Shown piece by piece: positions 44,756-63,852 of a stretch of 64,000 bases of DNA. Origin of the DNA: a virus. Its lineage: Duplodnaviria > Heunggongvirae > Uroviricota > Caudoviricetes. Location of the stretch: IMG/VR virus record IMGVR_UViG_2925450510_000002; one strand, 5' to 3'. How positions within the stretch are numbered: the first letter of the stretch is position 1; each line of letters opens with the position of its first letter. A program made the translations under genes and the position numbers. The notes under the pieces were generated by a model. That model ran no database searches. It was given only the letters and a program-made list of their open reading frames with translations, and had not been told where the DNA came from.

Positions 44756-44814
44756 TTACCCCCGCTTACCCGTTTAACTTATTGATTCAATTGATATCAA
44801 TGAAGATCGTTGTT

Positions 44815-46831: not shown

Positions 46832-47085
46832 CAGATCACCTCCACGGCATTACCTTTTGAGGCCTCATGCATTAGCCGTTTTATCTCAGCATGGCGGCGG
46901 CGGTTAGTCTCGAGGGTGCATTCGACACAATGCCCGTTGTATACCCATCGCTCACTGTCATGGCCGTGCTTACATTGCTTACCGGTGTAGTAGCGCTTTA
47001 GTCCTGCCTTTGCCGCTTCGACGCGAGTAATGATCTCCATAGTTCCTGTCTCACTCTGGTTGTGGTTACGGTAATTTTGCAGCAA
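46831..47085 (-). CDS. small Cys/His-rich hypothetical protein
   Basis: 84 aa, CKHGHD...CVEC. Confidence 0.4.
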   Translation of the reverse strand: MLQNYRNHNQSETGTMEIITRVEAAKAGLKRYYTGKQCKHGHDSERWVYNGHCVECTLETNRRRHAEIKRLMHEASKGNAVEVI

Positions 47086-47186
47086 GCCAAAAAAAGATCA
47101 ACCGTATTTGGATAATTATTACCGAATTGGTGTACAGGGAGAGGCAGGAGCCGCCTGGGGGTGGCGGCGAGGGTGAGTTTTGAGGA

Positions 47187-47420
47187 TTAACGTTCGTGGA
47201 ACCAGAGGACCAGGTCGGATTTTGCGGAGATCCACTTACGGGATTTGCAGGCTTTAAACAGTCTTTCTAACAGAGGCTTACGTGGAATTCTTCTACGGCC
47301 AGTCAGGTGAACCTGAATGTAGTGGCTGGTCGTGCCGGCGTCACTTGCGAACTCTTCACGCTCTGCCGGAGAGAGGTCGAGCCAGCAGCGTTTGAAGTCA
47401 AATTTTTGCACATCGCTCAT
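47187..47420 (-). CDS. Cro/CII-like small HTH regulator (start uncertain)
   Basis: HTH-like SDAGTTSHYIQVHLTGRRRIP. Divergent from the plus-strand repressor. Confidence 0.45.
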   Translation of the reverse strand: MSDVQKFDFKRCWLDLSPAEREEFASDAGTTSHYIQVHLTGRRRIPRKPLLERLFKACKSRKWISAKSDLVLWFHER

Positions 47421-47458
47421 ATTTTTTAGTCCCGGACTAACTTTAGACAGCCTGATTA

Positions 47459-47520
47459 TTACCAATCTGGTGTAAAAATCAATGACTGTTACCTTTTTGG
47501 TAAGTTTACCTTTATGGTAA
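47459..47520. promoter_or_regulatory. operator cluster: TTACC-N5-GGTAA palindromes (47489..47503, 47506..47520) and an imperfect copy (47459..47473)
   Basis: Perfect 15-bp palindromes TTACCTTTTTGGTAA and TTACCTTTATGGTAA between the divergent regulators. Confidence 0.5.
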
Positions 47521-47573
47521 TATTCTATTAAATTTAATCAGTTAGGTAACAATTCCAGGCTAAAAAAATAGAA

Positions 47574-48155
47574 ATGAAAAGCATCTACGACATAAGACGC
47601 GACAACCTCAATGAGATAATCCGGAAGGATTTCGATAACACGCAACTCCGGTTTGCCGAGAGAATCAAAAAATCAGCTAACCTCGTTAACAGGTGGAGCA
47701 AGGGGACAAAAAATATCGGCGCTAACGCGGCACGCGAGATCGAGTCGTTCGCCGGAAAAGGTCGTTTCTGGCTGGATATCGACCATCTGTCAGATACCCC
47801 GACGCTGCCGGAGATTATCGACCCGCAGGAATGGAGTGTGGAAAAGCAGGCAGCGTTTACCCTGGGTGTATGGATGGGACAGCATCCGGATCTGAACTCA
47901 GAGAAAAAGGTTTCGGAAGCGGCCGGTATCGGCCAGGCGACCGTAAATCGCATCCTGAACTGCGAAGGCTCCACCAGCATTGGCGTACTGTCGGCTATCG
48001 CCAGGGCGTTCGGCCGCGATGCATATGAGCTGATCCTGCCGCCTGGTAATGCTGGTCTGATTGACTATGACCACCATGAATACGCCGGGCTGCCGCAGGA
48101 AGAGAAAAACAAGATCACCGCCTTCATCAAGTTCATCGTCAGCCAGAACCAGTAA
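47574..48155 (+). CDS. phage B repressor candidate with two HTH domains and no peptidase domain
   Basis: N-terminal and C-terminal XRE-like HTH segments. No Ser-Lys peptidase motif. Confidence 0.55.
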   Translation: MKSIYDIRRDNLNEIIRKDFDNTQLRFAERIKKSANLVNRWSKGTKNIGANAAREIESFAGKGRFWLDIDHLSDTPTLPEIIDPQEWSVEKQAAFTLGVWMGQHPDLNSEKKVSEAAGIGQATVNRILNCEGSTSIGVLSAIARAFGRDAYELILPPGNAGLIDYDHHEYAGLPQEEKNKITAFIKFIVSQNQ

Positions 48156-48219
48156 GCCTCTAATCTACCTGTCAATGCTGCAATCCTGCCGGGGGGATAA
48201 CTTCCCGCGCCTCATACAT

Positions 48220-48372
48220 TTACCATTTTGGTAAACTTTTCCTCGTCACATCTATTGACTAATTCGAAAATTGATCAGATTATTACCTTAACGGTAACAG
48301 CAGGGCGTTGAATTACCAGAAACCCACCACCGGGTGGCTTTCTCATACCCCCTGACATTTACCAAATGGTAA
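48220..48372. promoter_or_regulatory. second operator cluster: TTACCATTTTGGTAA (48220), TTACCTTAACGGTAA (48283), TTACCAAATGGTAA (48359)
   Basis: Three palindromes upstream of the plus-strand recombination operon. Confidence 0.45.
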
Positions 48373-48379
48373 TAGTGAG

Positions 48380-49471
48380 GTGTGTATGCAATGGCAAATC
48401 ATTAACGGCTGGTACTGCGTTACGGCATGCGGGCTGATGAGTTGGAAGTTTCGCACGCTGCCGGAAGCAATCAGCTGGGGCGTTCGTCAGCAAACTGGCA
48501 GCAAAAACGGAAATGGGTATGGGGGTGAGAAAGTGACTGATTTAGCAATTATCGAAATCGCGCCAGACATGGCGCCGGCAATTTACGTTGAGAACGGGCT
48601 TGATTCCTTCCTGGAAAAGATCCGCGCCGGAGTAAACGAAGTTCCTGACCTGAGCACTGCAAAGGGACGGGCTCGTATTGCATCGCTGGCCGCACAGGTA
48701 TCACGCAGCAAAACTGCTGTAGAGAAACCTGGCAGGGATTACCTGAAGCGCCTCAAGGAGCAGCCAAAAGTGGTTGAAGCTGAATTGCGCCGCTTCGTCA
48801 CCGAATGCGATCAGCTGCGCGATGAAGTACGCCGCCCTCTTACCGAGTGGGAAGATGCTGAAAAGGCGCGCACCGAAGCACTGCAGCAGCGCCTTGTGGA
48901 TTTGCGTGCGCTGGCTGACGTGATCGACACCGCCGGTAACTACCTGCCTTCTGCTGATATTCAGGCGCGCATTCTGGAAGCTAAATCCGTGGTACTGGAT
49001 GACAGTTGGCAGGAACGTGCAACAGAGGCGGGCGTGGCTAAGGATTCAACTATTCAGCAACTGGAAGCGTCGCTGGTAATAGCGCAAAAGCGCGAACATG
49101 AAGCCGCCGAGCTTGATCGCCTGCGCAAAGAGGCAGAAGAAAAAGCACGCCTTGAGCGTGAAGAGAATATCCGCCGTGAAGCCGCTGAACAGGCTAAGCG
49201 TGATGCAGAGGAAAAGGCACAGGCTGAAATTGATGCTGCTATCGCAGCGGAGCGCCGCCGTCAGGAAGAAGCTGAATCAGCGCGCCTGGCTGACCAGAAG
49301 CGCATTGCGGAAGAAGAAGCGCGCCGGGCCGCTGATAAAGAGCACCGCCGCAGCATCAATCGACAGGCTATCGCAGACCTGATTGAAAGCGGCCTTACGC
49401 AGAAAATGGCAGAGAAGGCACTGATCGCCATCGCCAGCGGGAAGGTATCTGCAGTCTCTATCAAGTACTAA
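48380..49471 (+). CDS. DUF1351-like coiled-coil protein (recombination module; start uncertain)
   Basis: C-terminal charged coiled coil (EAEEKARLEREENIRREAAEQAKRDAEEKAQ). Confidence 0.45.
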   Translation: MCMQWQIINGWYCVTACGLMSWKFRTLPEAISWGVRQQTGSKNGNGYGGEKVTDLAIIEIAPDMAPAIYVENGLDSFLEKIRAGVNEVPDLSTAKGRARIASLAAQVSRSKTAVEKPGRDYLKRLKEQPKVVEAELRRFVTECDQLRDEVRRPLTEWEDAEKARTEALQQRLVDLRALADVIDTAGNYLPSADIQARILEAKSVVLDDSWQERATEAGVAKDSTIQQLEASLVIAQKREHEAAELDRLRKEAEEKARLEREENIRREAAEQAKRDAEEKAQAEIDAAIAAERRRQEEAESARLADQKRIAEEEARRAADKEHRRSINRQAIADLIESGLTQKMAEKALIAIASGKVSAVSIKY

Positions 49472-49472
49472 G

Positions 49473-49778
49473 GTGCGTATGAACACTCAGCAGATTAACA
49501 ACCTGAAAAAAATCATGACCAGCATCGACAGCAACTACCAGCTGAGCCAGATGCACTATGAGCGACAGGTGGAGCTGATCGACGCGATCAAATACCACCA
49601 GCTGCAGAAACCTTTCTACGAACTGGAGCGCAAAGGCGTGCGCACCGAGATTCTGGAAGAACTGATGATGAGCCCGGAATTCGAAGAAGTTCTAGCGGCG
49701 TACCAGGCCGCGCTGACCAGCATCATCGCGAAGTGGGATCTGGCTGACCAACTGGATACGGCGAGGAACGCGGCATGA
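49473..49778 (+). CDS. hypothetical protein
   Basis: 101 aa. Confidence 0.45.
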   Translation: MRMNTQQINNLKKIMTSIDSNYQLSQMHYERQVELIDAIKYHQLQKPFYELERKGVRTEILEELMMSPEFEEVLAAYQAALTSIIAKWDLADQLDTARNAA

Positions 49779-50596
49779 CACCAGGAATTTACTTCGATAT
49801 CAGCAACGAGGACTACCACGCCGGCGACGGCGTGAGTAAGTCACAGCTGGATATGGTGGCGCTGAGCCCGGCCCTTCTGCAGTGGCAGAAATCAGCACCG
49901 GTCGATACCGAAAAGCTGAAAGCTCTGGATATGGGAACTGCCCTGCACTGCCTGCTTCTGGAGCCGGAAGAGTTCGATAAGCGCTTCATCGTGGCGCCAC
50001 CCTTTAACCGTCGAACAAACCAGGGGAAAGCGGATGAAGCGGCTTTCATGAAGGATTGCGAGGGGAGCGGGAAAACAATTATGGAGGCGGAGCAGGATCG
50101 TCAGTTGAAACTGATGCGTGATAGCGCAATGGCGCACCCGGCAGCGCGCTGGCTGCTTGAGGCGGAAGGATTCTGCGAAGCCTCTCACTACTGGAAGGAT
50201 CCGGAGACTGGAGAGTTGTGCCGCATACGCCCGGACAAGCGCCTGAAGAATCACCCTGTCCTGCTGGACGTGAAGAAGGTTGCCGATATGGAGCGTTTCT
50301 CGCGCCACATTGAGGAATTCCGGTATCACGTACAGGACGCGATGTACCGCGAAGGTGCGCAGCAGACCACCGGCGATCCGCATGGATTCTTCTTCCTGGC
50401 AGTGAGCGAAACCATTGACTGCGGCCGCTACCCGGTGCGGGTGTTCGAACTGGATGCGCAGGACGTGGACACAGGGTATGCGCTCTACCGCCGGGATCTG
50501 AATACCTATCACCAGTGCCGAGAAACCGGAGACTGGGGTGGATTTGAAGTTATTAAACGCCCTGAGTGGGCACGCAAACAGGATATGTACGTATGA
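49775..50596 (+). CDS. PD-(D/E)XK exonuclease (YqaJ/DUF3799-like), RecT partner
   Basis: DISNEDYHAGDGVSKSQL...RPDKR...LLDVKK motifs. Confidence 0.6.
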   Translation: MTPGIYFDISNEDYHAGDGVSKSQLDMVALSPALLQWQKSAPVDTEKLKALDMGTALHCLLLEPEEFDKRFIVAPPFNRRTNQGKADEAAFMKDCEGSGKTIMEAEQDRQLKLMRDSAMAHPAARWLLEAEGFCEASHYWKDPETGELCRIRPDKRLKNHPVLLDVKKVADMERFSRHIEEFRYHVQDAMYREGAQQTTGDPHGFFFLAVSETIDCGRYPVRVFELDAQDVDTGYALYRRDLNTYHQCRETGDWGGFEVIKRPEWARKQDMYV

Positions 50597-51474
50597 GCAA
50601 CGACATCGCAATCACTTCTCAGCCTGGTGCTACCGTCGGCACCGCCGCGGCAATCTTCAGCCCGGAAGGGATGGATCGCCTGGTGCGATTTGCCACCCTG
50701 ATGGCTGACAGCAAAGCCACCGTTCCGGCGCACCTGGCTGGAAAGCCAGCTGACTGCCTGGCGGTGACTATGCAAGCGGCGCAGTGGGGAATGAACCCGT
50801 TCGCGGTAGCGCAGAAAACTCATGTGGTAAACGGCACGCTTGGCTATGAAGCGCAACTGGTTAATGCGGTTGTCTCTTCCTCAAACCTTCTGGCCACTCG
50901 TCTGAACTACAAATGGGATGGCGACTGGTCAAAGGTAAGCGGGAAAACCGACAAATCGCCGAGCCTGACAGTGACAGTGTGGGCAACCATTAAAGGCGAA
51001 TCTGAGCCTCGCACCCTGACCATCAGCATGGCGCAAGCCGGAGTGCGCAACTCACCCCTCTGGGAGCAGGATCCGCGTCAGCAACTGGCTTACCTGTGTG
51101 TTAAGCGCTGGGCACGCCTGCACGCCCCTGATGTTCTCCTTGGCGTCTACACCCCTGACGAATTGCAGGAAGCAGCACCGCGTGTTGAGCGCGACATTAC
51201 GCCACCGGCTAGCACCGCTGCGGGGATGAATCAGCTGATCAATTCGCACCCCGATCAGCACCATGAAGAGAAGGCGAAAAAGACTGACGACCGCGCCCCA
51301 GAAGACATTCTCTCTGGCTTCTCTTCTGCGGCTATGGCGGCTCGTAACGTTGCAGAACTGGACAAGGCATACAAATACGCGGCCCACCGTCTGGCTGGCA
51401 ACCAGGAGTTACTGGACGCTGCCACCGATGTATACGGCATCCGCAAAGACGAACTGAACGAAGTCCATATGTAA
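50593..51474 (+). CDS. RecT-family single-strand annealing recombinase
   Basis: CLAVTMQAAQWGMNPFAVAQKTHVVNGTLGYEAQL. ATGA overlap with the exonuclease gene. Confidence 0.65.
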   Translation: MSNDIAITSQPGATVGTAAAIFSPEGMDRLVRFATLMADSKATVPAHLAGKPADCLAVTMQAAQWGMNPFAVAQKTHVVNGTLGYEAQLVNAVVSSSNLLATRLNYKWDGDWSKVSGKTDKSPSLTVTVWATIKGESEPRTLTISMAQAGVRNSPLWEQDPRQQLAYLCVKRWARLHAPDVLLGVYTPDELQEAAPRVERDITPPASTAAGMNQLINSHPDQHHEEKAKKTDDRAPEDILSGFSSAAMAARNVAELDKAYKYAAHRLAGNQELLDAATDVYGIRKDELNEVHM

Positions 51475-51522
51475 TCACCACCGCGGCGCGCCCGGCGCCG
51501 CACTGAAAAAAGAGAGGTAACG

Positions 51523-51771
51523 ATGAAAGGTGCATTAGGCAAAAAGGAACTGCTGGCGGTGGTGCCTGTATCGATGAGCACTATCGACCGCATGGAGAAA
51601 AACGGGGAGTTCCCTAAGCGTTTCTGGATCACAGACAAGCGCTGTGCCTGGAACAGCGAAGAGATCGAGCGCTGGCTTGATGAACGTCAGCAGAACGGCA
51701 CCACAGAGTTTGCTGGAAAAAAGCCTCCGGTTGAGCAGCGAGTATTTCGCCCGGTTGGTAACGCGGCGTGA
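51523..51771 (+). CDS. AlpA-family HTH (excisionase/regulator)
   Basis: LLAVVPVSMSTIDRMEKNGEFPKRFWITDKRCAWNSEEIERW. Confidence 0.55.
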   Translation: MKGALGKKELLAVVPVSMSTIDRMEKNGEFPKRFWITDKRCAWNSEEIERWLDERQQNGTTEFAGKKPPVEQRVFRPVGNAA

Positions 51772-51880
51772 CGTCGCTGGCGAGGTACTGGGAAAGGTGG
51801 TCAGGATGGTTTCTGTACCTGGCCGCTGTATCCGCCTGGCTGTTCCTGCTGGCGGTCATTTTTCGAGAGGGTTGGATACG

Positions 51881-52174
51881 ATGAATCGGATGGAAAAATA
51901 CCACGCGGATTATGTCTCGCAGCGCAAAGCACCCCCTCTTGTCGCCGTAACGCCGGCGGCAATGGAGATCGAGCAGCGCGCTATTGCCCGCGAGAACAAA
52001 GGCCAGTTCCGCCTGGCCGCTCGCCTCTGGCTTGAGTGCATGGATGCGGCCACTGGCGAGGTTGAGCGGGCCCGTATCGCTATACGCCGCGATCAGTGCA
52101 TTGGCCGCGGGAACCGGCTTCGCCAGGGATGCTATGCCGGGATCTGCGCCACCGCCGGGGTGATTTATGACTAA
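51881..52174 (+). CDS. PerC-like small regulator
   Basis: AIARENKGQFRLAARLWLECMDAATGEVERARIAIRRDQC. GAGAGGG SD. Confidence 0.4.
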   Translation: MNRMEKYHADYVSQRKAPPLVAVTPAAMEIEQRAIARENKGQFRLAARLWLECMDAATGEVERARIAIRRDQCIGRGNRLRQGCYAGICATAGVIYD

Positions 52175-52321
52175 CCCACACGACAGCATTCGCGTAGGAA
52201 GTATCACGCTGGTTTATTCGTCCGTGCGGCGTGGCTGGCTGGCGCCGGGCGGCCAGGTTATCCAGAACCCGCTGAAGGCTCAGCGCCTGGCTGAGCAACT
52301 GAATAGCAAGAAGGTGGCAGT

Positions 52322-53071
52322 ATGAAAGAACGCGGAATGATTTTTAACGGGGAGATGGTGCGGGCCATCCTCGACGGCCGGAAGACGCAGACTCGGCGGG
52401 TTATGAAGGTACAGCCGAAGCCATCGAAATCACGACCAGGGGATTTTTGGTTTTCATCGAAAAAATTAGAAAGCATGGTGCACGTTTCTGACCTTGCGCC
52501 TGGCAACTCACCTATTGCCGATTATCACCTTTTCATTCAGGAGCATTGCTGCCCGTTCGGAGCAGTCGGCGACCGCATCTGGGTGCGTGAAACGTGGGGA
52601 GTAGTCAGCCACGAATTGGATGAGGATGGTCGAATCCAACCATGGACGCCAGACCGGCCGGCTACGGTTATTCATGAAATGCCGTTTGGCAACGGCTATT
52701 ACTCTGGTCACGCCATTTATGCAGCTGATGGCGATTTCACCTGGGGTGATGACGATGGTTATGAAGATGGTCGTTCGTGCTGGAAACCTTCCATTCATAT
52801 GCCGAGAGCAGCCAGCCGCATTCTTCTGGAAATCACCGACGTGCGGGTTGAGCGGCTGAACGCTATTAGCCAAGAAGATGCTCAAGCTGAAGGCATGGAG
52901 CTTACCGGGTGGCGGCCTACATACTCTGACCCGGATAGCGGCGGCGAGGTTATGACGCCATACGACAACTTTGCTGAGTTGTGGTCATCCATCTACGGCG
53001 AAGGAAGCTGGAAGGCTGACCCCTGGGTTTGGGTTATTTCGTTTAAGCGCGTTGAAGGCGGTGCAGCATGA
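52322..53071 (+). CDS. ASCH (PUA-like) domain protein
   Basis: MIFNGEMVRAILDGRKTQTRR...GDRIWVRETW pattern. Overlaps the methylase start. Confidence 0.5.
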   Translation: MKERGMIFNGEMVRAILDGRKTQTRRVMKVQPKPSKSRPGDFWFSSKKLESMVHVSDLAPGNSPIADYHLFIQEHCCPFGAVGDRIWVRETWGVVSHELDEDGRIQPWTPDRPATVIHEMPFGNGYYSGHAIYAADGDFTWGDDDGYEDGRSCWKPSIHMPRAASRILLEITDVRVERLNAISQEDAQAEGMELTGWRPTYSDPDSGGEVMTPYDNFAELWSSIYGEGSWKADPWVWVISFKRVEGGAA

Positions 53072-53661
53072 GCGGAAAATACACCCTGATCTATGCGGAT
53101 CCGCCTTGGGCATACCGCGACAAGGCCGCTGACGGTGACCGCGGCGCCGGTTTCAAATATCCAGTTATGAATTACCTGGATATCTGCCGGCTGCCTGTGT
53201 GGGAACTGGCTGCCAACGATTGCCTTCTGGCTATGTGGTGGGTACCGACTCAGCCGATTGAGGCGCTGAAAGTCATGGAGGCTTGGGGATTCCGCCTGAT
53301 GACCATGAAGGGATTCACCTGGCACAAGACGAACAAGCACAAAGGGAACAGCGCGATCGGCATGGGCCATATGACCCGGGCGAACAGCGAAGACTGCCTG
53401 TTTGCGGTGCGCGGGAAACTTCCGGCCCGCATGGACGCCTCGATCTGCCAGCACGTCACGGCGCCGCGCCTGGAGAACTCGCGCAAACCGGACATTATCC
53501 GCGAGAAACTGGTGCAGCTGCTTGGCGATGTCCCGCGCATTGAGCTCTTCGCCCGCCAGTCGTCTCACGGTTTCGATGTGTGGGGGAACCAGTGCACGGC
53601 GCCGGCGGTTGAGTTGCTGCCAGGCTGCGCAGTGCCGGTAGTGAAGACGGAGGCCGCATGA
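53068..53661 (+). CDS. MT-A70 family N6-adenine DNA methyltransferase (orphan)
   Basis: IYADPPW motif. No adjacent restriction endonuclease. Confidence 0.8.
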   Translation: MSGKYTLIYADPPWAYRDKAADGDRGAGFKYPVMNYLDICRLPVWELAANDCLLAMWWVPTQPIEALKVMEAWGFRLMTMKGFTWHKTNKHKGNSAIGMGHMTRANSEDCLFAVRGKLPARMDASICQHVTAPRLENSRKPDIIREKLVQLLGDVPRIELFARQSSHGFDVWGNQCTAPAVELLPGCAVPVVKTEAA

Positions 53662-53849
53662 ACATTGCCGAAGAGGCCTCGCTGATACGACAACTCGAAG
53701 AGGCGCGCGCCATTATCAACCAGAGGAATGGTGAGATCCTTCACCTGCAGCGAGAAGCGGCGCGCTACCGTGAGCAGCGGGATTCTGCAAACGCGATGGT
53801 TAAGTTCCTGCGCGGGCTTTTTGAGAATTCTTCGAAGGCGACACAATGA
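53658..53849 (+). CDS. small coiled-coil protein
   Basis: 63 aa. Confidence 0.4.
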   Translation: MNIAEEASLIRQLEEARAIINQRNGEILHLQREAARYREQRDSANAMVKFLRGLFENSSKATQ

Positions 53850-53865
53850 GCCGCCTCCGGGCGGA

Positions 53866-55116
53866 CTATTGTTCATTCATCCACTTTTCAAATGCAGACG
53901 GGGAGAACGGCACCAGGTCGTAATGCTCCCCGTTTATCCATGCATCAACCATATTTGCCCACTGCTGCAGCATGTAGGCCCGCTGCCTGGAATACTCGGC
54001 CTTGTTGTAAACGGCCCTCACGCCCTTCTGTTCATGCGCCAGCGCCTTCTCTATCCAGTCTGAAGGGAATCCCGCTTCATGCAAAAGCGTGCTCGCTGTG
54101 CGCCGCAGGTCGTGCACTGTTAGAGGTTGCAGGTTCTCCCCGGCATCCGATGCCGCAGCAACCGCGCGATCGATGACTGAGTTCAGAGCGGCATTGGATA
54201 GCGGCTTACTGGTGCTGTAGCGACCTGGCAACAGATAATCACTCCCGCCGGCGCACATCTGCAGGCCTATCATCAGATCCTGCGCCTGAGGCGGCAGATA
54301 GATGACGTGCAACCGGCTCCCCTTCATCCTGTCAGATGGGATCGTCCAGGTTCCTTTGCTGAAATCCACCTCTTTCCACGTCGCCATGATGAACTCGGTT
54401 TTGCGCACCATCGTGATCAGGATGAGCTTCACAGCCAGTTTTAAGGTTGGCAAAGTGCTGACGGTATCGAGAGACCTGAACAGCACGCCGATTTCTTCCG
54501 GCTGCAGGCAACGGTCACGCGGTTTAAACATGGCGATCGCCGAAGGTTTGATATCTGCGGCCGGGTTGAATAACCCGTGCCCGCGGTCATTGGCGTACCG
54601 GTACACGCTGCTGATGATTTCACGCGCCTGCACCGCCGTCGCACGTCCACCGCGCTCGACTATGCGATCGCAAAGATCACGCACCATAGGGGTCGTTATC
54701 TCGGACATCATTTTGTTTCCGAGAACAGGCAAAATATCCCGGTCGATTACTGATTGTTTCATAGCCCGCGTGCTGTCAGCCAGGACCACATGTTTCATGT
54801 AGGCGTCGGTATGTACCGTAAATGTTTCGGCGCCGCGGATCCGCTTGATACCGTCACGCTTCGCTGCAGCCGGCGACTGGCCTGCGTTCAGCAGTTTTTT
54901 AGCGGCTATCAGCTCATCCCTGGCTTCAGCCAGTGTGATACCGTCACGACCATACTGACCGATAACCAGCGTCTCCCGGCGGCCGTTGATGCGGTAATCG
55001 TAACGAAACGAGATGGTGCCTGAGATCAGCACGGCTACATACAGACCGTCGCGATCGGAGACCTTGTACATTTTGCCCTGCGGTTTCAGGTTTTTTAATT
55101 TGGTATCGGTAAGCAC
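53866..55116 (-). CDS. int: tyrosine integrase (P4-like, DUF4102 N-terminal arm-binding domain)
   Basis: MLTDTKLKNLKP N-terminus and a C-terminal catalytic domain with a conserved RHDLRRT motif. Confidence 0.85.
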   Translation of the reverse strand: MLTDTKLKNLKPQGKMYKVSDRDGLYVAVLISGTISFRYDYRINGRRETLVIGQYGRDGITLAEARDELIAAKKLLNAGQSPAAAKRDGIKRIRGAETFTVHTDAYMKHVVLADSTRAMKQSVIDRDILPVLGNKMMSEITTPMVRDLCDRIVERGGRATAVQAREIISSVYRYANDRGHGLFNPAADIKPSAIAMFKPRDRCLQPEEIGVLFRSLDTVSTLPTLKLAVKLILITMVRKTEFIMATWKEVDFSKGTWTIPSDRMKGSRLHVIYLPPQAQDLMIGLQMCAGGSDYLLPGRYSTSKPLSNAALNSVIDRAVAAASDAGENLQPLTVHDLRRTASTLLHEAGFPSDWIEKALAHEQKGVRAVYNKAEYSRQRAYMLQQWANMVDAWINGEHYDLVPFSPSAFEKWMNEQ

Positions 55117-55139
55117 ATTTCACCCGTGATGCATCATTT

Positions 55140-55410
55140 TTCTGACGGTACGAGAGTATACCGTAATGGTAATACCGTCATGTATACCGTCAAAAAATGT
55201 GAGATAGAGTGAATTGATATGGTGTGATATAAAGAAAAACCCCCTGAATTAACAGAGGGTTAAAGAAGTATTTGAGTAGATATGATTAGCTATAAGGTAG
55301 CCGTTAATCATTCCCACTCAATTATTTACAACACTCGTAACCAATTGACTGGAAACAAGTTTATTAAACGATAAATTCTGCATACCGTTTTATATACCGT
55401 CACCGGGAAA
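55140..55410. promoter_or_regulatory. attP-like region: clustered ATACCGT arm-type repeats flanking an AT-rich core
   Basis: ATACCGT at about 55158, 55172 and 55184, an inverted copy at 55145, two more at 55383 and 55394, and TACCATG twice at 55414-55432. Immediately upstream of int. Confidence 0.45.
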
Positions 55411-55432
55411 CAGTACCATGAAAAATACCATG

Positions 55433-55915
55433 CTACCTGGTCAGTTCATCGTACTGCCTTTCGCATACCCTTCCGGCTTCAGCTGCCCGGTCAGCGTATT
55501 CTGCCAGTTGTCGGTTTCGTTCGAGAGATTTTTCGAACACGTCGGTAAGCAAAATTCCGGTGTCTGCGGCTGACGACCCAGCGCCGACAGTGGCGTTATA
55601 CTGCCTGAGCTGCTCACGGATGGCAACGAGCTGCTGCTGCAGCCGGCCAGCGCGAGCGGCAGCATCAAGAGCATCATTGCGCGCCTGGTCGATCCTCTGC
55701 TGCGCCTCACGTTCATTGGTTGCTTTCTCCTGTTCATCATGTTGACGGGCTTTCTCATCTTCTGCTTTGCGGTCAGCCTTCGCCTGCGCATACCCGGCGT
55801 CGTACTGTCTGTCACCGTGAATATTCCAGGCTATAACGCCGCCGGCCACCAGAGCAGCAAGCATCGACACGATAAGCAACTGTTTCCAGTATGCTTCCAC
55901 AAATGCCGTGATCAT
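55433..55915 (-). CDS. i-spanin (Rz-like)
   Basis: Starts at MITAFVEAYW (TM) followed by a coiled coil. ATGA overlap with the endolysin stop. Confidence 0.55.
   Translation of the reverse strand: MITAFVEAYWKQLLIVSMLAALVAGGVIAWNIHGDRQYDAGYAQAKADRKAEDEKARQHDEQEKATNEREAQQRIDQARNDALDAAARAGRLQQQLVAIREQLRQYNATVGAGSSAADTGILLTDVFEKSLERNRQLAEYADRAAEAGRVCERQYDELTR
55441..55677 (-). CDS. o-spanin (Rz1-like) fully embedded in the i-spanin gene
   Basis: MMLLMLPLALAGCSS lipobox in the +1 frame. Confidence 0.5.
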   Translation of the reverse strand: MMLLMLPLALAGCSSSSLPSVSSSGSITPLSALGRQPQTPEFCLPTCSKNLSNETDNWQNTLTGQLKPEGYAKGSTMN

Positions 55916-56541
55916 GATGCCAGCACCTTCTTGGCCGACAGGTAACGCACACGGCGATCGTCGATGCCATTCTGCCCGCCGTTGATGATCTGCGTGACGC
56001 GCATCAGGTCGTCGGTGTACTTCAGGCATCCATATTTCACGAAGTACCACGCCGCGCTCCGCGCCGCATACTCGTCCTGCGCCAGCAGCTCCGGCTGCTT
56101 AACCAGATCCACCCTCAGGGCAGCCCCGCAATCGCGGTAGTTGTTTAGTCCGGTGGTCTGGATGAGACCGCGACCGCGGTAAAACCAGCCGTCGGTAGGC
56201 CCGTTATTCCCCATGCGTTTGCTGTACACCAGATTGGCAATGGCCCGCTGCCTCTCCAGTGGCAACGATGGTTCACCCTGCCGGCGCCCGAGGGAATTAG
56301 CCTGTCCCTGCGTCAGCCTCCCGGCACGGACGAAACCAGCCAGCCCCGCCACGCTGTAATTGAAGCTCTCAACGAGCTGGGTAAATCCAGTGCTTTCATG
56401 CCCGGCCTGGGCAATAAACATCGCCTGATCCAACGGCTTGATGATGCCAAACTCTTTCATGGCCGCCACAATGTGCGGATGCCAGCGTGTGGCCAACGCC
56501 AGGCTAACGCCGGCAGCTTTCTGAAACTCGTTAATGTCCAT
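55912..56541 (-). CDS. GH19 chitinase-like endolysin
   Basis: GHESTGF and GRGLIQTTG motifs. Confidence 0.75.
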   Translation of the reverse strand: MDINEFQKAAGVSLALATRWHPHIVAAMKEFGIIKPLDQAMFIAQAGHESTGFTQLVESFNYSVAGLAGFVRAGRLTQGQANSLGRRQGEPSLPLERQRAIANLVYSKRMGNNGPTDGWFYRGRGLIQTTGLNNYRDCGAALRVDLVKQPELLAQDEYAARSAAWYFVKYGCLKYTDDLMRVTQIINGGQNGIDDRRVRYLSAKKVLAS

Positions 56542-56836
56542 GTTGCGACCTCGATATCTTGAAGATTTGCACGACGTTGCCGCGCGTCTTCAGCACCGCG
56601 GCGAACATCACAGCATTGATAACGACCTCAGAAAGATCTGCGGTCATGGGGAAGTGGTACAGGTATGAGTACGCGGTGCGAAGCGGGATACTGGCCGCCG
56701 CCACGATGAGGAAATAGGCTATCCACCCGCCCCAGCGGCGGTGGCGCGATCCGTTGCGCTGGAAGAACATCACCCGCAGCGCTATCCCGCCGCAGATGAT
56801 TGCATTAGCGATAAGCAGCAGATCATGGCCTGTCAT
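56531..56836 (-). CDS. holin/antiholin-like membrane protein
   Basis: 101 aa with 3 TM segments. Confidence 0.45.
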   Translation of the reverse strand: MTGHDLLLIANAIICGGIALRVMFFQRNGSRHRRWGGWIAYFLIVAAASIPLRTAYSYLYHFPMTADLSEVVINAVMFAAVLKTRGNVVQIFKISRSQHGH

Positions 56837-57236
56837 CGTCTTTTCCTCCCGGGATTAAATCGCGCGGATTGTCAGAGCGGTGATACAGCCATATTCCAAC
56901 CCGCACAGCGACAATCGCCGCAACGAACGCGCCGGCGGAGTAGACAATGCCGCGCTCGAACGAGTCCTGTGTGATGGTGGGGATCATGCTGGCAACGCCG
57001 ATAAGGATTGATGCTGTGGGTTTGTAGAAGAGAAGACCGCAGAGAAAGCTGAGTAGTGCCAGGAGAACGCGGCGCTTGACCGGATACTCAACTGCAGAGG
57101 TAACAAAAATTACCGCCCCGGCCAGCGATCCCAGCGCCACTTCAGGAGGTACGCCGGCGATAACTGCCGCCAGCGCACCGTAGCTAAGCCCCTGATTTAT
57201 TGTATCAGCGGTTAGCGATGCAGACATGATGACCAC
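56823..57236 (-). CDS. holin-like membrane protein
   Basis: 137 aa with 3-4 TM segments. First gene of the lysis cassette. Confidence 0.5.
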   Translation of the reverse strand: MVIMSASLTADTINQGLSYGALAAVIAGVPPEVALGSLAGAVIFVTSAVEYPVKRRVLLALLSFLCGLLFYKPTASILIGVASMIPTITQDSFERGIVYSAGAFVAAIVAVRVGIWLYHRSDNPRDLIPGGKDDDRP

Positions 57237-57489
57237 CGTTTACTATGCATGATGAACCTCCTTAGTTTGGTAAGTTCATCATACACAATAAACCAAATAC
57301 GGATAGATGGTAATTTACTAATTAATTATTTCACTAGGTCCTTGATTCGCTGCATCTTGCACAGATAGTCCTTGCTCATAAAATTCATACCATGCCATTT
57401 TGTAGGGTGCACATTTTCCATTATGTGCCAGAATAATACATAATTCTTGATACCATGCATCAAATGCATCATTTTCACTTTGTTCCATA

Positions 57490-57655
57490 TTATGCCCTTA
57501 GTTTTGCACTGATAACTCTGCTGGCAGAGTCTATCGCTGTTAATGTTACGGTTAAGGTCTTACCATCAGAAGAGATAGCAAAAGAAAGCGAAACCCCGGT
57601 TGGACTAGCAGAGGTAATGCCCCACGTTCCACCACTAACAGTGGCAAAAGTTCTA
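57490..57655 (-). pseudogene. orphan C-terminal fragment, probably the displaced 3' end of the phage B tail fibre gene
   Basis: The open frame runs from inside IS copy 2 out to a stop at 57490. Encodes a beta-rich ...GVSLSFAISSDGKTLTVTLTAIDSASRVISAKLRA tail. Confidence 0.35.
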
Positions 57656-58851
<1,196 letters not shown>

Positions 58852-58856
58852 CCTAG

Positions 58857-58953
58857 TGTGGTTGCAGACCTCGCTGAATTAGCAATAGCAACAAATAAAA
58901 TAGCTAACTCAGCAACATATTCTTCCGGTTATAAGGATGCTAAAAATGTCTGA
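58857..58953 (+). pseudogene. 3' part of the IS-disrupted phage A ORF (pairs with 16907..17133)
   Basis: Same reading frame once the TSD is collapsed (...LSSVVADLAELAIATNKIANSATYSSGYKDAKNV). Confidence 0.5.
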
Positions 58954-59134
58954 TATCACTTTGCAAAAAGCAGCATCAAAGGCTTACCAGGCTGAGATTG
59001 TGGCGAGGATGCTTGAGAACTACCCTCATAAACTGACCGACTCAGACGTGGAATCTGTCGCCTCACTTTTGGCTGATCTGATTGGGCCAGTTGCAGCGTA
59101 CCTTATTGAGGAAGAGTCTAAAAACCCGGCTTAA
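58946..59134 (+). CDS. small hypothetical protein
   Basis: 62 aa with an AAGGA SD. ATGTCTGA overlap with the upstream stop. Confidence 0.4.
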   Translation: MSDITLQKAASKAYQAEIVARMLENYPHKLTDSDVESVASLLADLIGPVAAYLIEEESKNPA

Positions 59135-59303
59135 AAATTTAATTAGTAATTTTAATTACAGGAGTAATCCCGGGGATTTCTGCAATCAAATTAAGGGTAA
59201 CCATGATTAATAAACAAGCATTTAAAACAGCTCAGTTATTTGTCTCTCTTGGTTATTGGTCTATAGCCATGCTTTATTTAAAAAAGGCTTACGGTAAATA
59301 AAA

Positions 59304-59669
59304 GTGAATAATTTAATTAGCACTTATAGACGCAGAATTTTAAAAGCGGCCTTGTTACGCCACCAGCGAAAGACTGGGAGTAGCTTACTTGTCATTAAGC
59401 TCAACAAGGGTGGGATTAGTACTATCGAATTAACTGAGATTCTTCTTGATGGATTGTTGCGGAAATTCGAGCGACTGGCGCTCGGTGAATACGGAAATGT
59501 GGAAGGTGTGAAAGCTCTTAAGGGAATTTACAGCAACTCTGTTGATGTTAATGGCAGCGGCGAATTCCTCACAGAAAGCGGGAAAGAGTTAATCGACGAG
59601 CTTATTTCTGAACTGGTTGAGTTCGTCAAAAAGCAGAAACCAGTTACTGCGGAGTCCGGCAATGAATAA
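59304..59669 (+). CDS. hypothetical protein
   Basis: 121 aa. Confidence 0.45.
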   Translation: MNNLISTYRRRILKAALLRHQRKTGSSLLVIKLNKGGISTIELTEILLDGLLRKFERLALGEYGNVEGVKALKGIYSNSVDVNGSGEFLTESGKELIDELISELVEFVKKQKPVTAESGNE

Positions 59670-59916
59670 CCAGCAAACAATGCTCTATCAGGGTGTGCTG
59701 ATCCCCCGCCCCGTGTTGAACGTGGATCTGCATGTCCTCCCTGATTTTACCGGGCGGGTAGTCTTGCACATCGAGAACGGGAGGGTGATATGCGACCGCC
59801 AGCTGTTCGACGACGAGCACATTTGCACACTGGCCACGTTTATCGAAATGGCCCGCGACGCGGGGTTGAGGATCGAGGAGGAAGCTGGTGGCACTGACAG
59901 CGATACGAATTCCTGA
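59662..59916 (+). CDS. hypothetical protein
   Basis: 84 aa. Start overlaps the previous stop. Confidence 0.4.
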   Translation: MNNQQTMLYQGVLIPRPVLNVDLHVLPDFTGRVVLHIENGRVICDRQLFDDEHICTLATFIEMARDAGLRIEEEAGGTDSDTNS

Positions 59917-60102
59917 GAGGGTTCACCTGCAGGCGCTGCAGGTCCTGCTGCGGTATCGGCGCCGGCGGATATTCCCGCGGCGAATGCGCCGCACCGGCTA
60001 CCTCAGCCTGAAGGTTAACCCACGCTGGCGCCTGTTATCGAAAGACGATGGCCGGAACTGGGAAGTTATGAGTCATGAAACCTATAACCGGGAGAAAGAC
60101 AA

Positions 60103-60528
60103 ATGATTGACAACAGAACTGTCAGCGCCATTGACCTGGCGTTGCAAAAGCACCCAACGCCAGTTGGTGATCTGTTCGCCGCGATCCGCCACGGACGCAT
60201 GAAGCGGTGCTTCAGCCGGGATACCGCAATTCGTTACCTGGCGTTCTTCATGACCTCCCGAGCTTTTGGGCGTTCTGGTTTCAAGCAGCGTTATCCGGAC
60301 GTGCAGGTAATTCATCCACTGAATCCAGAACTGAGTAGCTGGCAACGTGGCGCCGTGACCACTGAGTATTTTAACGCCCACCAGCGCACCGTTCGCCGGC
60401 TGCGTCGCATCCTCGCCCGCAAAAGAGAAATGCAAAAGTGGTGCAAAAAGTGGGATGCCATGCACGACCGCTACGTGAAAGAGCGCGAAGAACTACAGGC
60501 CTGTAAGCCTGGAGGGCTGAGTCGATGA
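60103..60528 (+). CDS. hypothetical protein, first gene of a coupled 4-gene block
   Basis: 141 aa. Stop overlaps the next start. Confidence 0.45.
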   Translation: MIDNRTVSAIDLALQKHPTPVGDLFAAIRHGRMKRCFSRDTAIRYLAFFMTSRAFGRSGFKQRYPDVQVIHPLNPELSSWQRGAVTTEYFNAHQRTVRRLRRILARKREMQKWCKKWDAMHDRYVKEREELQACKPGGLSR

Positions 60529-60719
60529 TTGCTTACTTACGCATTGTTCTATCGGTGGTGATTGTCGCCAGCGTTTATGGGCTGTTCGTTCCGATCCTCA
60601 TTTCGATGAAGGACACGACAGCAGTTATATCCGGTTTTGCCCTGGCGATTCTGACCCCGCCGTGCATCTACGCCATTTGTAAGGGTCTTGTGCTTACCGT
60701 AACGAAGGAAAAGAAATGA
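60525..60719 (+). CDS. small two-TM membrane protein
   Basis: 64 aa. ATGA coupling on both sides. Confidence 0.45.
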   Translation: MIAYLRIVLSVVIVASVYGLFVPILISMKDTTAVISGFALAILTPPCIYAICKGLVLTVTKEKK

Positions 60720-61543
60720 AAAAAGCAATTATGGCTTCAATTATCGCACTCTCTGCCATCGGCCTTGTTGGTTGCGATCGAGTTGAGCCCGGCAACGTGG
60801 GTATCAAGGTGAATAAGTTGGGCGACGATAAAGGCGTTGGTGAAGTCGTCGGCGTCGGCCGCTACTGGACCGGCTGGAATACCGAGGTTTATATCTTTCC
60901 GACCTTCAAGCAGATGAAAACGTATGAAGACGCTTTCAACTTCCAGATGAGCGATGGAACCACCATCGGCTACCACATCGGGGTCGCGTACAAGGTTGAT
61001 CCGACCAAAGTTACAACCGTTTTCCAGACCTACCGTAAAGGCGTGGACGACATCACCGACACCGACCTGCGGCAGAAAATTGCTGACGCCCTTAATCGTC
61101 TCGCAAGTCGGATGAGCACCGATAAATTCATTGACGGCGGGAAAGCTGAGCTGCTTGAAAACGCACTGAAAGAGATCCAGTCCGATATGGGGCCGGTTGG
61201 TATCCAGGTGATCAGCCTTTCTTACGTTGGCCGTCCGGAATACCCGCCGACAGTGATCGAAAGCATCAACGCCAAAGTTACGGCCAACCAGAAGACGCTG
61301 CAGCGCGAGCAGGAAGTTAAACAACGTGAAGCTGAAGCCAACATGTTACGAGCCGAAGCCGATGGCCAGGCGGATGCAAAGCTGAAATTGGCTGAAGCAG
61401 AAGCAAAGTCTATCCAGATCCGTGGGCAGGCCTTGCGTGAGAACCCTGAGGTACTGCAACTGGAGGCCATCAACAAATGGAATGGCACCCTGCCCCAGTA
61501 CATGACCAGCGGAACAAACACCCCTTTTATCCAGGTTAAATGA
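60716..61543 (+). CDS. SPFH/band-7 (prohibitin/flotillin-like) lipoprotein
   Basis: Lipobox LVGC, an SPFH core, and a C-terminal coiled coil (EQEVKQREAEANMLRAEADGQADAKLKLAEAEAK). Confidence 0.7.
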   Translation: MKKAIMASIIALSAIGLVGCDRVEPGNVGIKVNKLGDDKGVGEVVGVGRYWTGWNTEVYIFPTFKQMKTYEDAFNFQMSDGTTIGYHIGVAYKVDPTKVTTVFQTYRKGVDDITDTDLRQKIADALNRLASRMSTDKFIDGGKAELLENALKEIQSDMGPVGIQVISLSYVGRPEYPPTVIESINAKVTANQKTLQREQEVKQREAEANMLRAEADGQADAKLKLAEAEAKSIQIRGQALRENPEVLQLEAINKWNGTLPQYMTSGTNTPFIQVK

Positions 61544-62166
61544 TCCACCAGCCCGGCGACAAGCCGGGCACATATGAGAGGTTCGCAATGCTTCAGAACA
61601 TGCTTAACCCGGAACCAACCTCAACAGGGATCCGGTCTGGAAACCGGGTGATTGGCTACTCCGCTGCTATTCGCCTGCTGGATAACGGTCGCTATGACAA
61701 ACACCTTGCCGATGGAATGGAAATTCTGGCCTGCATCATGGAAGCGGTAGAAAGCAACTGGATCACGCTCAATATCGAAAAAGAGTTGATCCTCTGGCGC
61801 TGGTTACTGGCTGCCGTGTTCATCACTGAGGAGCTGGAGAAAAACGGAACTGTCGACGTTCCGAATGATACTGGCGGTGTTGATACTGCTGTTATCTATT
61901 CCAGCAAGCATGGCGCCATTAGCGTCTATCCGGGACCTGAACGCTTTGCACTCGCCAACCATATTGAGCTGGGGGCAATCGAGAAATATGGGCCAGAGGT
62001 TGGCCAGCAGCTGGCGCTGCGGATGTATCAGGACATGGTTATTGCTGACGAAGAATTTGGGTTCAGGTTATCAGCACTTGGCCGGGAGGGGCTTAACCTC
62101 CTCCATGACAGCTTTATCGAACACATCCAGATCGAAGGTGTGCCCGAAGCACCGATTATGCATTGA
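61540..62166 (+). CDS. hypothetical protein
   Basis: 208 aa. Coupled to the SPFH gene. Confidence 0.5.
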   Translation: MIHQPGDKPGTYERFAMLQNMLNPEPTSTGIRSGNRVIGYSAAIRLLDNGRYDKHLADGMEILACIMEAVESNWITLNIEKELILWRWLLAAVFITEELEKNGTVDVPNDTGGVDTAVIYSSKHGAISVYPGPERFALANHIELGAIEKYGPEVGQQLALRMYQDMVIADEEFGFRLSALGREGLNLLHDSFIEHIQIEGVPEAPIMH

Positions 62167-62882
62167 GGGGAATGATGATGAATAACTTGATCACTAACAA
62201 ACCATCCATGACCAGCCTTGAGATCGCCGAGCTGGTAGAAAAACGCCACGACAACGTGAAACGCACGATTGAGACCCTGATTATGCGTGGCGTTATTACT
62301 TCTCCTCAAATTGAGGAAAAGCCTACTGCCGGGCGCCCCACAACAATTTACGTTTTTGAAAGTGAAGAAGGGAAGCGTGACAGCATCATTGTGGTCGCGC
62401 AACTCAGCCCCGAGTTTACCGCCAGACTGGTAGATCGCTGGAAAGAGCTGGAAGAAGAACGCTCCCGGCCAAAATCGCAGGCAGAGCTGATCGCTGAAAT
62501 GGCCCTGCTGAATGTTGAGCAGGAACGACGCCTCTACCAGGTTGAAGAACAGGTGGAAACCGTAGTCGAAGCTGTCGAAAACATTAAGCGTGGAAATATG
62601 CGGGCCGGGTATGTCGGTTATCGCCAGGTGGTCGCAAAAAGCGGCATGACCGATGCCAAGTGTCGAAACCTTGTTAACGCATACCGTATCCCAACCGATA
62701 CACACGAATTCATGACGCCTGATGGTTTACTGTCTCGCCGGGCGATCGTGGAGTTTGAACCTTTTATGAAAGCATTCCGCCAAATGATGGCAGAAGCCGA
62801 ACCACGTGGGACCCGTTGGTATCACCCGAAAATGGGACTCTTTCAGGCTATCGGATGGGAGGAAAAACATTGTGAAAATTGA
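62163..62882 (+). CDS. Rha-family phage regulatory protein
   Basis: TSLEIAELVEKRHDNVKRTIETL Rha N-domain. Confidence 0.65.
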   Translation: MRGMMMNNLITNKPSMTSLEIAELVEKRHDNVKRTIETLIMRGVITSPQIEEKPTAGRPTTIYVFESEEGKRDSIIVVAQLSPEFTARLVDRWKELEEERSRPKSQAELIAEMALLNVEQERRLYQVEEQVETVVEAVENIKRGNMRAGYVGYRQVVAKSGMTDAKCRNLVNAYRIPTDTHEFMTPDGLLSRRAIVEFEPFMKAFRQMMAEAEPRGTRWYHPKMGLFQAIGWEEKHCEN

Positions 62883-63096
62883 GTTTAATGATCAAGGGTC
62901 GGTTTCAGTTATCACGGTCACCAGCACCGTGTTTGAGTTCCGCCGGCACAACCGGGCGATTGATGTCGCGTTGTTCCTCACGCCTGAAATTACCAGCCAG
63001 AGCAGCGGTTTTTTCATTATGAAAACGATCTTAAGCGGGAAGACACATCACGCGCTGCGGGCCTATAAACATCTGATCCGGGAGGCTAAGCAATGA
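62872..63096 (+). CDS. small hypothetical protein (GTG start)
   Basis: GGGAGGA SD. Confidence 0.35.
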   Translation: MKIEFNDQGSVSVITVTSTVFEFRRHNRAIDVALFLTPEITSQSSGFFIMKTILSGKTHHALRAYKHLIREAKQ

Positions 63097-63305
63097 GAAA
63101 CGGCCAGCATTATGCATACCCAAATCCAAGCAACGCAACGCCTGGTGGTATGACTTATCGTCAGTATCTTATCGCAAAAATTGCACCAGTTATGATCACG
63201 AACTTCTTCAGCAACGATGCTTGGACGGATTACGACGACCTCGCCAGAACTCTGATGATGGCTGTGGATGCCATCATCGAAGCTGAACAGGAGACAGCTG
63301 AATGA
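63093..63305 (+). CDS. hypothetical protein
   Basis: 70 aa, coupled. Confidence 0.4.
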   Translation: MRNGQHYAYPNPSNATPGGMTYRQYLIAKIAPVMITNFFSNDAWTDYDDLARTLMMAVDAIIEAEQETAE

Positions 63306-63781
63306 CAATCTGCGAAAAACGGCTTAAAAGAATCGCCGGCGGTGAACCTTTCTTCCCGGGCGAGGTGGTTGCGATGGCTCTTGAGCTTCTGGCGAATTCT
63401 AAAGAAACATTGCGGCCGGAATACCCTGAAACACTCCCCTGCCCGGTCATTCTTGAACCCGGCTTCCGGTTTGGCAAAGGCGTTGGCACTCACCTGGTTC
63501 TGCGAGCACTTAACAACAGGGCTAAACGTTACGCTGAATTGGATGCCATGGGTCCAGAGGCCCGCGCAGAGCATGATGCCGCTATCGTTGAACTTCGGGA
63601 AAAACTGGGTTTTGGTACCCAAGCAAAAACAGCTGTGCAGGTGAAGCTTCCGGGACTGCCGCAGCTCGGATCTAACGCCGAATGGTATCAGGGATTTGCT
63701 GCTGGTGCAGGAAGCATGCGCGAAGCATGTGCGGCCGCTCTGATTTCTGCGGGTATTGAAATTATTGGGGAGACAATGTAA
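63302..63781 (+). CDS. hypothetical protein
   Basis: 159 aa. Confidence 0.45.
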   Translation: MTICEKRLKRIAGGEPFFPGEVVAMALELLANSKETLRPEYPETLPCPVILEPGFRFGKGVGTHLVLRALNNRAKRYAELDAMGPEARAEHDAAIVELREKLGFGTQAKTAVQVKLPGLPQLGSNAEWYQGFAAGAGSMREACAAALISAGIEIIGETM

Positions 63782-63852
63782 TGGACTGGCCAACAGCATT
63801 TTGCATCGTCGGTTGTGCGTTTGCCATAGCCTGGCTGTTTCGGAGTTAGTGT

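Follow-up and report, generated by a model that had tools for sequence, protein, structure and literature searches.

In phage lambda, attP is made up of the arm sites P1, P2 and P'1-3, sites for IHF, Xis and Fis, and a C-O-C' core, and the excisionase sites are normally confined to one arm. Phage P4, the founder of the P4 integrase family, targets a tRNA-Leu gene; its int is immediately preceded by attP, in which arm-type sites are repeated around a short core, and an AlpA/Vis-type protein is encoded nearby. The sequence of the P4 arm sites is, to our knowledge, unrelated to the ATACCGT repeats considered here. A further type of site, which targets guaA, has already been described in the phages epsilon15, phiV10 and vB_EcoP_ZX5. 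A 17-mer identical to the core reported below was identified in ZX5 as the attP core and confirmed by PCR and Sanger sequencing; the same paper cites the core as proven for phiV10 and epsilon15 and places it 190 bp from the 5' end of int (PMC9782041).

The DNA analysed here (the window) is the whole 64,000-nucleotide stretch of IMG/VR record IMGVR_UViG_2925450510_000002, and it adds a Klebsiella member to this guaA-targeting type. Positions 55117..55432 are very probably the complete and unrecombined attP of a temperate Klebsiella podophage of the epsilon15/phiV10 type (Uetakevirus-like), hereafter phage B, in which the repeats are most likely arm-type sites of the integrase and which went unused through arrival by an insertion sequence (IS). 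The genes and core elements of this region are as follows.

51523..51771, plus strand: AlpA-family gene, candidate excisionase or directionality factor, about 2.1 kb beyond the 3' end of int.
53866..55116, minus strand: int, a P4-type tyrosine integrase of 416 aa with a GTG start, from its open reading frame and Pfam domains.
55306..55322, no strand: attP core AATCATTCCCACTCAAT, 17 bp, equal to the E. coli attB, from comparison of attP, attB, attL and attR.
55313..55322, no strand: strand-exchange segment CCCACTCAAT, from the Klebsiella attL and attR junctions.
55313..55319, no strand: candidate 7-bp overlap CCCACTC.
55323..55329, no strand: TATTTAC, candidate C' core-type Int site, a phage-side extension of the invariant core block that is absent from attB.
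55433..55918, minus strand: DUF2514 Rz-like spanin (Pfam DUF2514), last gene of the lysis cassette and bound of attP on the P' side.

Int contains the Pfam domains Arm-DNA-bind_3 (residues 2-87, E = 8e-19), Phage_int_M and Phage_integrase, so that a distinct arm-binding domain at the N terminus precedes the core-binding and catalytic domains, as in the heterobivalent integrases of the lambda/P4 type. It shares 99% of its amino acids with the integrase of the guaA-integrated Klebsiella prophage phi13.3 and 82% with that of phiV10. The module of int, gap and lysis genes is 77-79% identical to its counterparts in epsilon15, phiV10, SPN1S and ZX5 and 95.7% identical to that of Klebsiella phage BUCT711. 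The order of lysis cassette, attP and int recurs in epsilon15, phiV10, SPN1S, BUCT554, Tyrion and BUCT711, and the records of relatives annotate the DUF2514 gene as a spanin. The product of the AlpA-family gene has 100% amino acid identity to the BUCT711 'AlpA family regulatory protein' and matches Pfam Phage_AlpA (E = 5e-6). A preliminary description, made from the letters of the window, had placed an AlpA-like gene nearby on the other strand and an AT-rich stretch beside a P4-like integrase; both are borne out, the AlpA-family gene lying on the plus strand and int on the minus strand, and the A+T content being 64% in the intergenic region 55117..55432 and 47% in the whole window.

The core has a single copy in the window; it stands between the two repeat clusters and begins 190 bp from the int start (55306 - 55116). 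Its reverse complement consists of the guaA 3' end, ATTGAGTGGGAATGA (I-E-W-E-stop), and TT, and the published core attgagtgggaatgatt matches it exactly on the complementary strand. Complete E. coli genomes split the match at this point, such that window 53800..55322 adjoins guaA and 55306..56600 adjoins yfgI, and the junctions of integrated E. coli and Klebsiella relatives fall there. Read directly, the four kinds of site are gccgttAATCATTCCCACTCAATtatttac (attP), ggtcaAATCATTCCCACTCAATggtagc (attB, E. coli K-12), gccgttAATCATTCCCACTCAATggtagc (attL, E. coli EC25) and ggtcaAATCATTCCCACTCAATtatttac (attR, E. coli PK6); in EC25, PK6 and Klebsiella phi13.3, attL is the guaA side with int and attR the yfgI side with the lysis genes. 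At least 120 contigs in IMG/VR contain the core together with the P' arm, and among the 97 with enough upstream sequence 87 are attR, with the host yfgI-side terminator left of the core, and 10 are intact attPs. The preliminary description had proposed an intact attP in this interval, had suggested comparison with the attL and attR of homologous integrated prophages, and would have given way had such prophages integrated elsewhere. That comparison defines the core as 55306..55322, and since the junctions of relatives lie at the core inside the interval, the published core is identical and 87 of the 97 informative contigs are attRs there, integration at another place is not what the relatives display. 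These comparisons establish the identity of the attP and of its core.

A census of one genome per species returned a single intact attP of the guaA type, on contig NZ_MAYS01000362.1 (2643 bp) of Candidatus Erwinia dacicola, a very short contig from an insect symbiont assembly. A tRNA gene, the usual target of P4-type integrases, was considered and rejected: the sole tRNA found by ARAGORN is Arg-tct at 37942..38018, with none at the core, and the integration target is the guaA 3' end. The tRNA-Arg(tct) gene is located in phage B beside the terminase region, and the matching region of the O157 typing phages 9 and 10 also has a tRNA-Arg.

The Klebsiella junctions place the point of exchange more narrowly. 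The native guaA end of K. pneumoniae reads TTACTCCCACTCAAT, and its attB has 15 of 17 bases, 10 of them contiguous, in common with the 17-mer core. In prophage phi13.3, attL (gccgttAATCATTCCCACTCAATcgttgc) retains phage bases (AATCATT) and attR (ggggaTTACTCCCACTCAATtatttac) retains host bases (TTACT). Because the mismatches between attP and the Klebsiella attB fall in the left part of the 17-mer, and because the phage-specific and host-specific bases keep to their own sides, exchange is placed to their right, within CCCACTCAAT, a refinement of the known system. Around CCCACTC, TTAATCATT and AATTATTTA form a 7/9 inverted repeat, and the core can be read as a putative C-O-C' arrangement with CCCACTC as the overlap. 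The invariant phage block extends 7 bp beyond the identity with attB, to 55329.

That the site has not been used for integration here, as the preliminary description held, is established by the single core in the window and by the phage B DNA on both sides of it, which is collinear with the virion-derived Klebsiella phage BUCT711. The reason that the attP went unused is that ISKpn26, in two direct copies, encloses the entire phage genome within another prophage (prophage A); the bounds are the following features.

17130..17133 and 58853..58856, no strand: the two copies of the CTAG target duplication in prophage A; without the interruption, phage A (MN166823) has gctttCTAGtgtgg.
17134..18328, plus strand: left ISKpn26, with a 1-nt deletion in the transposase gene, left bound of the phage B insert (ends +/-1 bp).
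57656..58852, plus strand: right ISKpn26, with an intact 326-aa transposase at 57724..58704, right bound of the phage B insert.

Outside these bounds, 15001..17133 and 58853..64000 of the window match at 100% a contiguous stretch of the Klebsiella prophage ST512-KPC3phi13.5, with a 4-bp overlap. Between the IS copies, 18329..57656 (about 39.3 kb, phage B) is collinear with phi13.3 and, when that genome is circularly permuted, with BUCT711. More specifically, window 18685..57172 follows circularly permuted BUCT711 at 94-98% identity, in blocks of about 40-46% of each query, and phi13.3 at 98% identity with about 52-55% coverage, the tailspike being excepted in both. A perfect tandem duplication with an 83-nt unit was found by repeat search at 21991..22156 in phage B.

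The two ISKpn26 copies are direct repeats, with 41.7 kb between the CTAG copies, and 57657..58852 is 100% identical to plasmid copies annotated as ISKpn26 and contains Pfam DDE_Tnp_1 and DUF772. The copies differ at three places. At 17257..17263 the left copy reads gaccc-aaaag and at 57780..57786 the right copy reads gacccgaaaag, which frameshifts the start of the left transposase; the terminal bases also differ, with G at 17134 and A at 57656 and with CCTTCC followed by T in one copy and CCTTCCC in the other. On the inner side the copies are flanked by TTAA and CTAA, which both conform to the YTAR target of IS5-type elements and do not form a duplication.

The genome permutation of phage B opens in the tailspike gene, which is split by the IS such that the N-terminal 273 codons (18329..19148, minus strand) and the last 55 codons (57490..57656, minus strand) remain and the central part is missing; the tailspikes of relatives have about 780 aa. 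What remains of the C-terminal part is similar to the ends of Klebsiella depolymerase tailspikes. A simple IS insertion in phage B was rejected: the inner flanks are not a duplication, removing 4 bp breaks the tailspike frame, and the joined remnants would be without the central part of the protein. Insertion with an adjacent deletion, or two separate events, is favoured for the junctions of phage B with the IS. ISKpn26 insertions with adjacent deletions are on record in Klebsiella prophages (PMC6908951). This copy of phage B is probably unable to make infectious particles, and with no intact tailspike gene in it, its attP may never be used again in this genome.

The pair of ISKpn26 copies and the CTAG flanks indicate that the phage was placed by the IS, or by a wrong assembly path, and not by Int. 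Phage B could have entered prophage A when an IS in a circular B recombined with one in A, or as a transpositional cointegrate, or the join could be that of an assembler. A replicative cointegrate that started from one IS copy seems less economical than recombination between two copies already present; the three points of difference favour two parents. It is tentatively suggested, at somewhat short of an even chance, that a complete temperate phage opened in its tailspike gene, with attP, int and the AlpA-family gene intact, was captured in the chromosome as a 41.7-kb ISKpn26-bounded insert resembling a composite transposon.

An alternative to this capture is that the intact chromosomal attP is an assembly artefact, phage B::ISKpn26 having been a free circle or integrated elsewhere, prophage A having held a single ISKpn26, and the assembler having threaded through the repeated IS. 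This is rather unlikely. The insert is bounded by 1.2-kb near-identical repeats of the kind that are mis-resolved in assembly graphs, and searches of IMG/VR for three exact junctions (IS/tailspike twice and phage A/IS once) returned no match; the differences between the IS copies would fit two parental copies, from A and from B, whether these were joined in the cell or in silico. Against an artefact, the sequence is internally consistent, with the CTAG duplication outside and inner flanks of YTAR type. The identification of the attP is unaffected by the choice between an artefact and a real insertion.

The remaining alternatives concern the repeats themselves, which are listed below with the other elements of the two arms.

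54848..54857, plus strand: intragenic ATACCGTCAC, antisense of R-D-G-I codons, a possible extra Int site, at offset -267 from the int start in 7/7 phages.
54938..54947, plus strand: second intragenic ATACCGTCAC, at a second R-D-G-I, offset -177 in 7/7 phages, within a 12-column invariant run (TGATACCGTCAC).
55143..55150, minus strand: inverted P-arm site, TACCGTCA, at offset -162 from the core in most, not all, distinct attPs.
55158..55164, plus strand: P-arm ATACCGT of the Klebsiella lineage only; TATACCTTT in Salmonella, E. coli and Enterobacter relatives.
55172..55180, plus strand: putative arm-type site ATACCGTCA, best conserved on the P arm, offset -134 in every attP examined, marked as an integrase site in the epsilon15 record.
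55184..55192, plus strand: P-arm site ATACCGTCA, partly conserved, offset -122; TACCGTC in about half of the relatives.
55205..55214, no strand: conserved block TAGAGTGAAT of 10 bp, with the P-arm sites on one side and the terminator on the other, invariant in 7 phages.
55238..55261, minus strand: Rho-independent terminator inside the P arm, between the arm sites and the core, from a terminator scan (hairpin and T run).
55382..55388, plus strand: P'-arm site ATACCGT (TACCGTTTTA), offset +76 in all attPs.
55394..55403, plus strand: putative P' arm-type site ATACCGTCAC, offset +88 in all attPs, an integrase site in the epsilon15 record.
55414..55420 and 55426..55432, plus strand: TACCATG twice, at a spacing of 12 bp, shortly before the stop codon of the spanin gene; no more than weak candidates.

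The 316-bp gap between the P4-type int and the lysis genes contains five exact copies of ATACCGT, all on the plus strand (55158-55164, 55172-55178, 55184-55190, 55382-55388 and 55394-55400, by direct reading and pattern search), and one inverted copy with a 6/7 match. Four copies, one of them inverted, had earlier been placed at 55145..55190; the three direct ones are exact, and the inverted one (ACGGTAC, 55145-55151) falls one base short, whereas the longer motif TACCGTCA is matched exactly at the same site in inverted orientation (55143-55150, minus strand). The second cluster, given before as 55383..55400, likewise has its two copies and starts one base earlier, at 55382. The two TACCATG copies were also correctly noted; the first is kept in 5 of the 7 aligned phages, and the second varies (ATGCCATG or ATGACATG) in the relatives that still align and has no counterpart in BUCT711 and Tyrion. 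Over the whole window ATACCGT has 16 matches where 4.21 +/- 1.91 are expected, a count reached in 0 of 100 shuffles, and TACCGTCA has 9 where 1.14 are expected, with 7 of the 9 inside 54459..55402 and no shuffle that high.

Conservation was assessed in an alignment of the attPs of seven phages, whose hosts are Klebsiella, Salmonella, Escherichia and Enterobacter, and in a set of 16 distinct attPs made up of these seven and nine further intact ones from IMG/VR, with mutual identities of 75-89%. The longest invariant run in the alignment, 23 columns, is the core block ATCATTCCCACTCAATTATTTAC (55307..55329). It is followed by a run of 21 columns in the P' arm (TACCGTTTTATATACCGTCAC), which contains the double site, by one of 13 columns in the P arm (GGTAATACCGTCA), which contains the site at 55172, and by one of 12 columns inside int (TGATACCGTCAC); the spacers between sites are invariant at only 35-49% of positions. 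Offsets from the core are fixed in the 16 attPs, at -162 (the inverted site, in most), -134 (all), -122 (some), and +76 and +88 (all). The copies are unequally conserved, those at 55172, 55394 and 55382 occurring in all relatives, the inverted one at 55143 in most, that at 55184 in some and that at 55158 in the Klebsiella lineage only.

The RefSeq record of epsilon15 marks four ATACCGTCAC copies as 'protein_bind: integrase', together with IHF sites and a terminator, and since these integrase-binding sites are already marked, the present attP belongs to a known system. The integrase-site annotation of that record appears to be a sequence prediction, and a literature search for Int-binding experiments on the arm sites of any member of this group found none. 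Judged from the sequence, the N-terminal Arm-DNA-binding domain of Int most likely uses the ATACCGT(CA) repeats as its arm-type sites.

The TAGAGTGAAT block, which may be a site for AlpA or for a host factor or accessory protein, carries no annotation at the homologous place in the epsilon15 record. The IHF consensus WATCAANNNNTTR has only two matches, each with one mismatch, at 55316-55328 (plus strand) and 55338-55350 (minus strand); the epsilon15 record has three predicted IHF sites. In the coding region of guaA, 45 bp from the core, the sequence ATACCGTTCAC in E. coli and GATACCGTTCAC in Klebsiella resembles the arm motif with one extra base; this is probably a coincidence.

Both intragenic copies fall where int encodes R-D-G-I motifs within its own arm-binding domain, and the homologous positions in the epsilon15 RefSeq record are annotated as integrase sites. 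Among 15 distinct int genes, 41 of the 253 degenerate codons with an invariant amino acid are invariant as codons; only 4 of the 21 Gly codons are so, two of them the GGT of the intragenic sites, and the Asp codon GAC is invariant at both sites. In the seven-phage alignment, the two sites together have 8 third positions, of which 6 do not vary, where the background is 30%. These invariant synonymous positions weakly suggest an extra constraint on the intragenic copies (roughly p = 0.01).

An improbable alternative is that the region is an attP but that the ATACCGT(CA) repeats are operators for the AlpA-family excisionase or for a regulator of int. The P-arm copies precede the int start by 27-76 bp and overlap the sole promoter-like match, and the two exact intragenic copies, about 370-460 bp from the core, are too distant for a lambda-sized intasome, so that their placement suits regulation better than recombination. 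Two further points count against the arm-site reading: the copies at 55158 and 55184 are not in all relatives, and the IHF matches have one mismatch each. Against operators, the motif flanks the core left and right, occurs in direct and in inverted orientation and keeps fixed offsets, as expected of arm-type sites; excisionase sites, as known from lambda, are normally found in one arm only; and Int has a dedicated arm-binding domain. The promoter-like match itself is not above chance. For an int promoter over the P-arm sites there is one sigma-70-like match (55193..55166, minus strand) where 1.4 are expected by chance, with a -35 hexamer that is not kept in epsilon15; autoregulation of int through such a promoter is no more than a possibility. 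That the cluster is a chance product of AT-rich intergenic DNA is negligibly probable: short 7-mers do recur at random and one listed copy matches at only 6/7, but 0 of 100 shuffles reach the observed counts, and the repeats are the most conserved blocks outside the core across phages from four host genera.

With the repeats read as arm-type sites, the P4-type Int would recombine the core with the host guaA 3' end by exchange within CCCACTCAAT, and the phage core would re-supply the last guaA codons and the stop codon. Toward int, at 116-163 bp from the core, the P arm would contribute an inverted copy and as many as three direct ones; toward the lysis genes, at 60-80 bp, the P' arm would contribute two direct ones. 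Int bridging arm and core sites, DNA-bending proteins and, for excision, the AlpA-family protein would form an intasome as in lambda and P4.

The P arm also contains the hairpin of the terminator, which is conserved in the seven-phage alignment and annotated as a terminator in epsilon15 and phiV10. In most of the phages it reads AAAAACCCTCTGTAAAAACAGAGGGTT, nearly equal to the native terminator beside attB (AAAAACCCTCTGTAGTAACAGAGGGTT in E. coli, ending in CTGTAAACACAGAGGGTT in Klebsiella). The native guaA/yfgI terminator next to attB is bidirectional. The likeness of the hairpins suggests either captured host sequence or selection that keeps guaA terminated in lysogens. After integration, guaA faces the phage hairpin and the lysis operon faces the host hairpin. 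In the phage form the P-arm hairpin would close the lysis operon, and in the lysogen it would become the guaA terminator while the near-identical host hairpin would terminate the lysis operon. Since the phage arm has a near-copy of the host guaA terminator, both transcription units would keep a terminator in either state; such a swap is the putative function of the arrangement, and the presence of this near-copy is a second refinement of the known system.

The known attP/guaA integration system thus gains a Klebsiella member and little else in it changes, and the map of arm sites offers a ready design for work on Int binding or on integration vectors. What is unusual at the locus is confined to the capture, between ISKpn26 copies, of a whole phage that has a live attP. 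An intact chromosomal attP marks a prophage that was not brought by its own integrase, here by ISKpn26, and predictors of prophage boundaries would miss or mis-call a prophage bounded in this way. If the capture is real, a live attP/Int pair stands at an ectopic place, where the attP could recombine with the chromosomal guaA attB and invert or delete a large segment, and the insert could leave as a circle by IS recombination or move as a unit.

Compared with lambda, the layout is similar in its two-sided arm sites, its AT-rich region of about 260 bp and its imperfect inverted repeat around a 7-bp candidate overlap. It differs in integrase subfamily, in target and in directionality factor (AlpA-type here, Xis in lambda), in that attP lies upstream of int here and downstream in lambda, and in IHF consensus matches that each carry one mismatch. 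P4 is similar in architecture: the integrase has the Arm-DNA-bind_3 and catalytic domains of the P4 family, int is immediately preceded by the attP with its repeats around a short core, and a small AlpA/Vis-type protein is encoded nearby. Unlike in P4, the target is the end of a protein-coding gene, with no tRNA or tRNA fragment at the core. IS-bounded cointegrates and composites in K. pneumoniae, of ISKpn26 and of other IS, share with the present insert the two direct IS copies and the outer 4-bp duplication, here CTAG, but the present insert carries the whole genome of a temperate phage, circularly permuted and with attP, int and AlpA intact, and it lies inside a second prophage.

The Uetakevirus attPs of epsilon15, phiV10 and ZX5 have the same 17-bp core, the same 190 bp to the int start, the same gene order, the same ATACCGTCAC offsets and the same terminator hairpin. 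The present phage differs from these in belonging to a Klebsiella lineage with an extra ATACCGT at 55158, and in being trapped between ISKpn26 copies in another prophage and not at guaA. By every sequence criterion tested, its attP is a member of the epsilon15/phiV10/ZX5 family.
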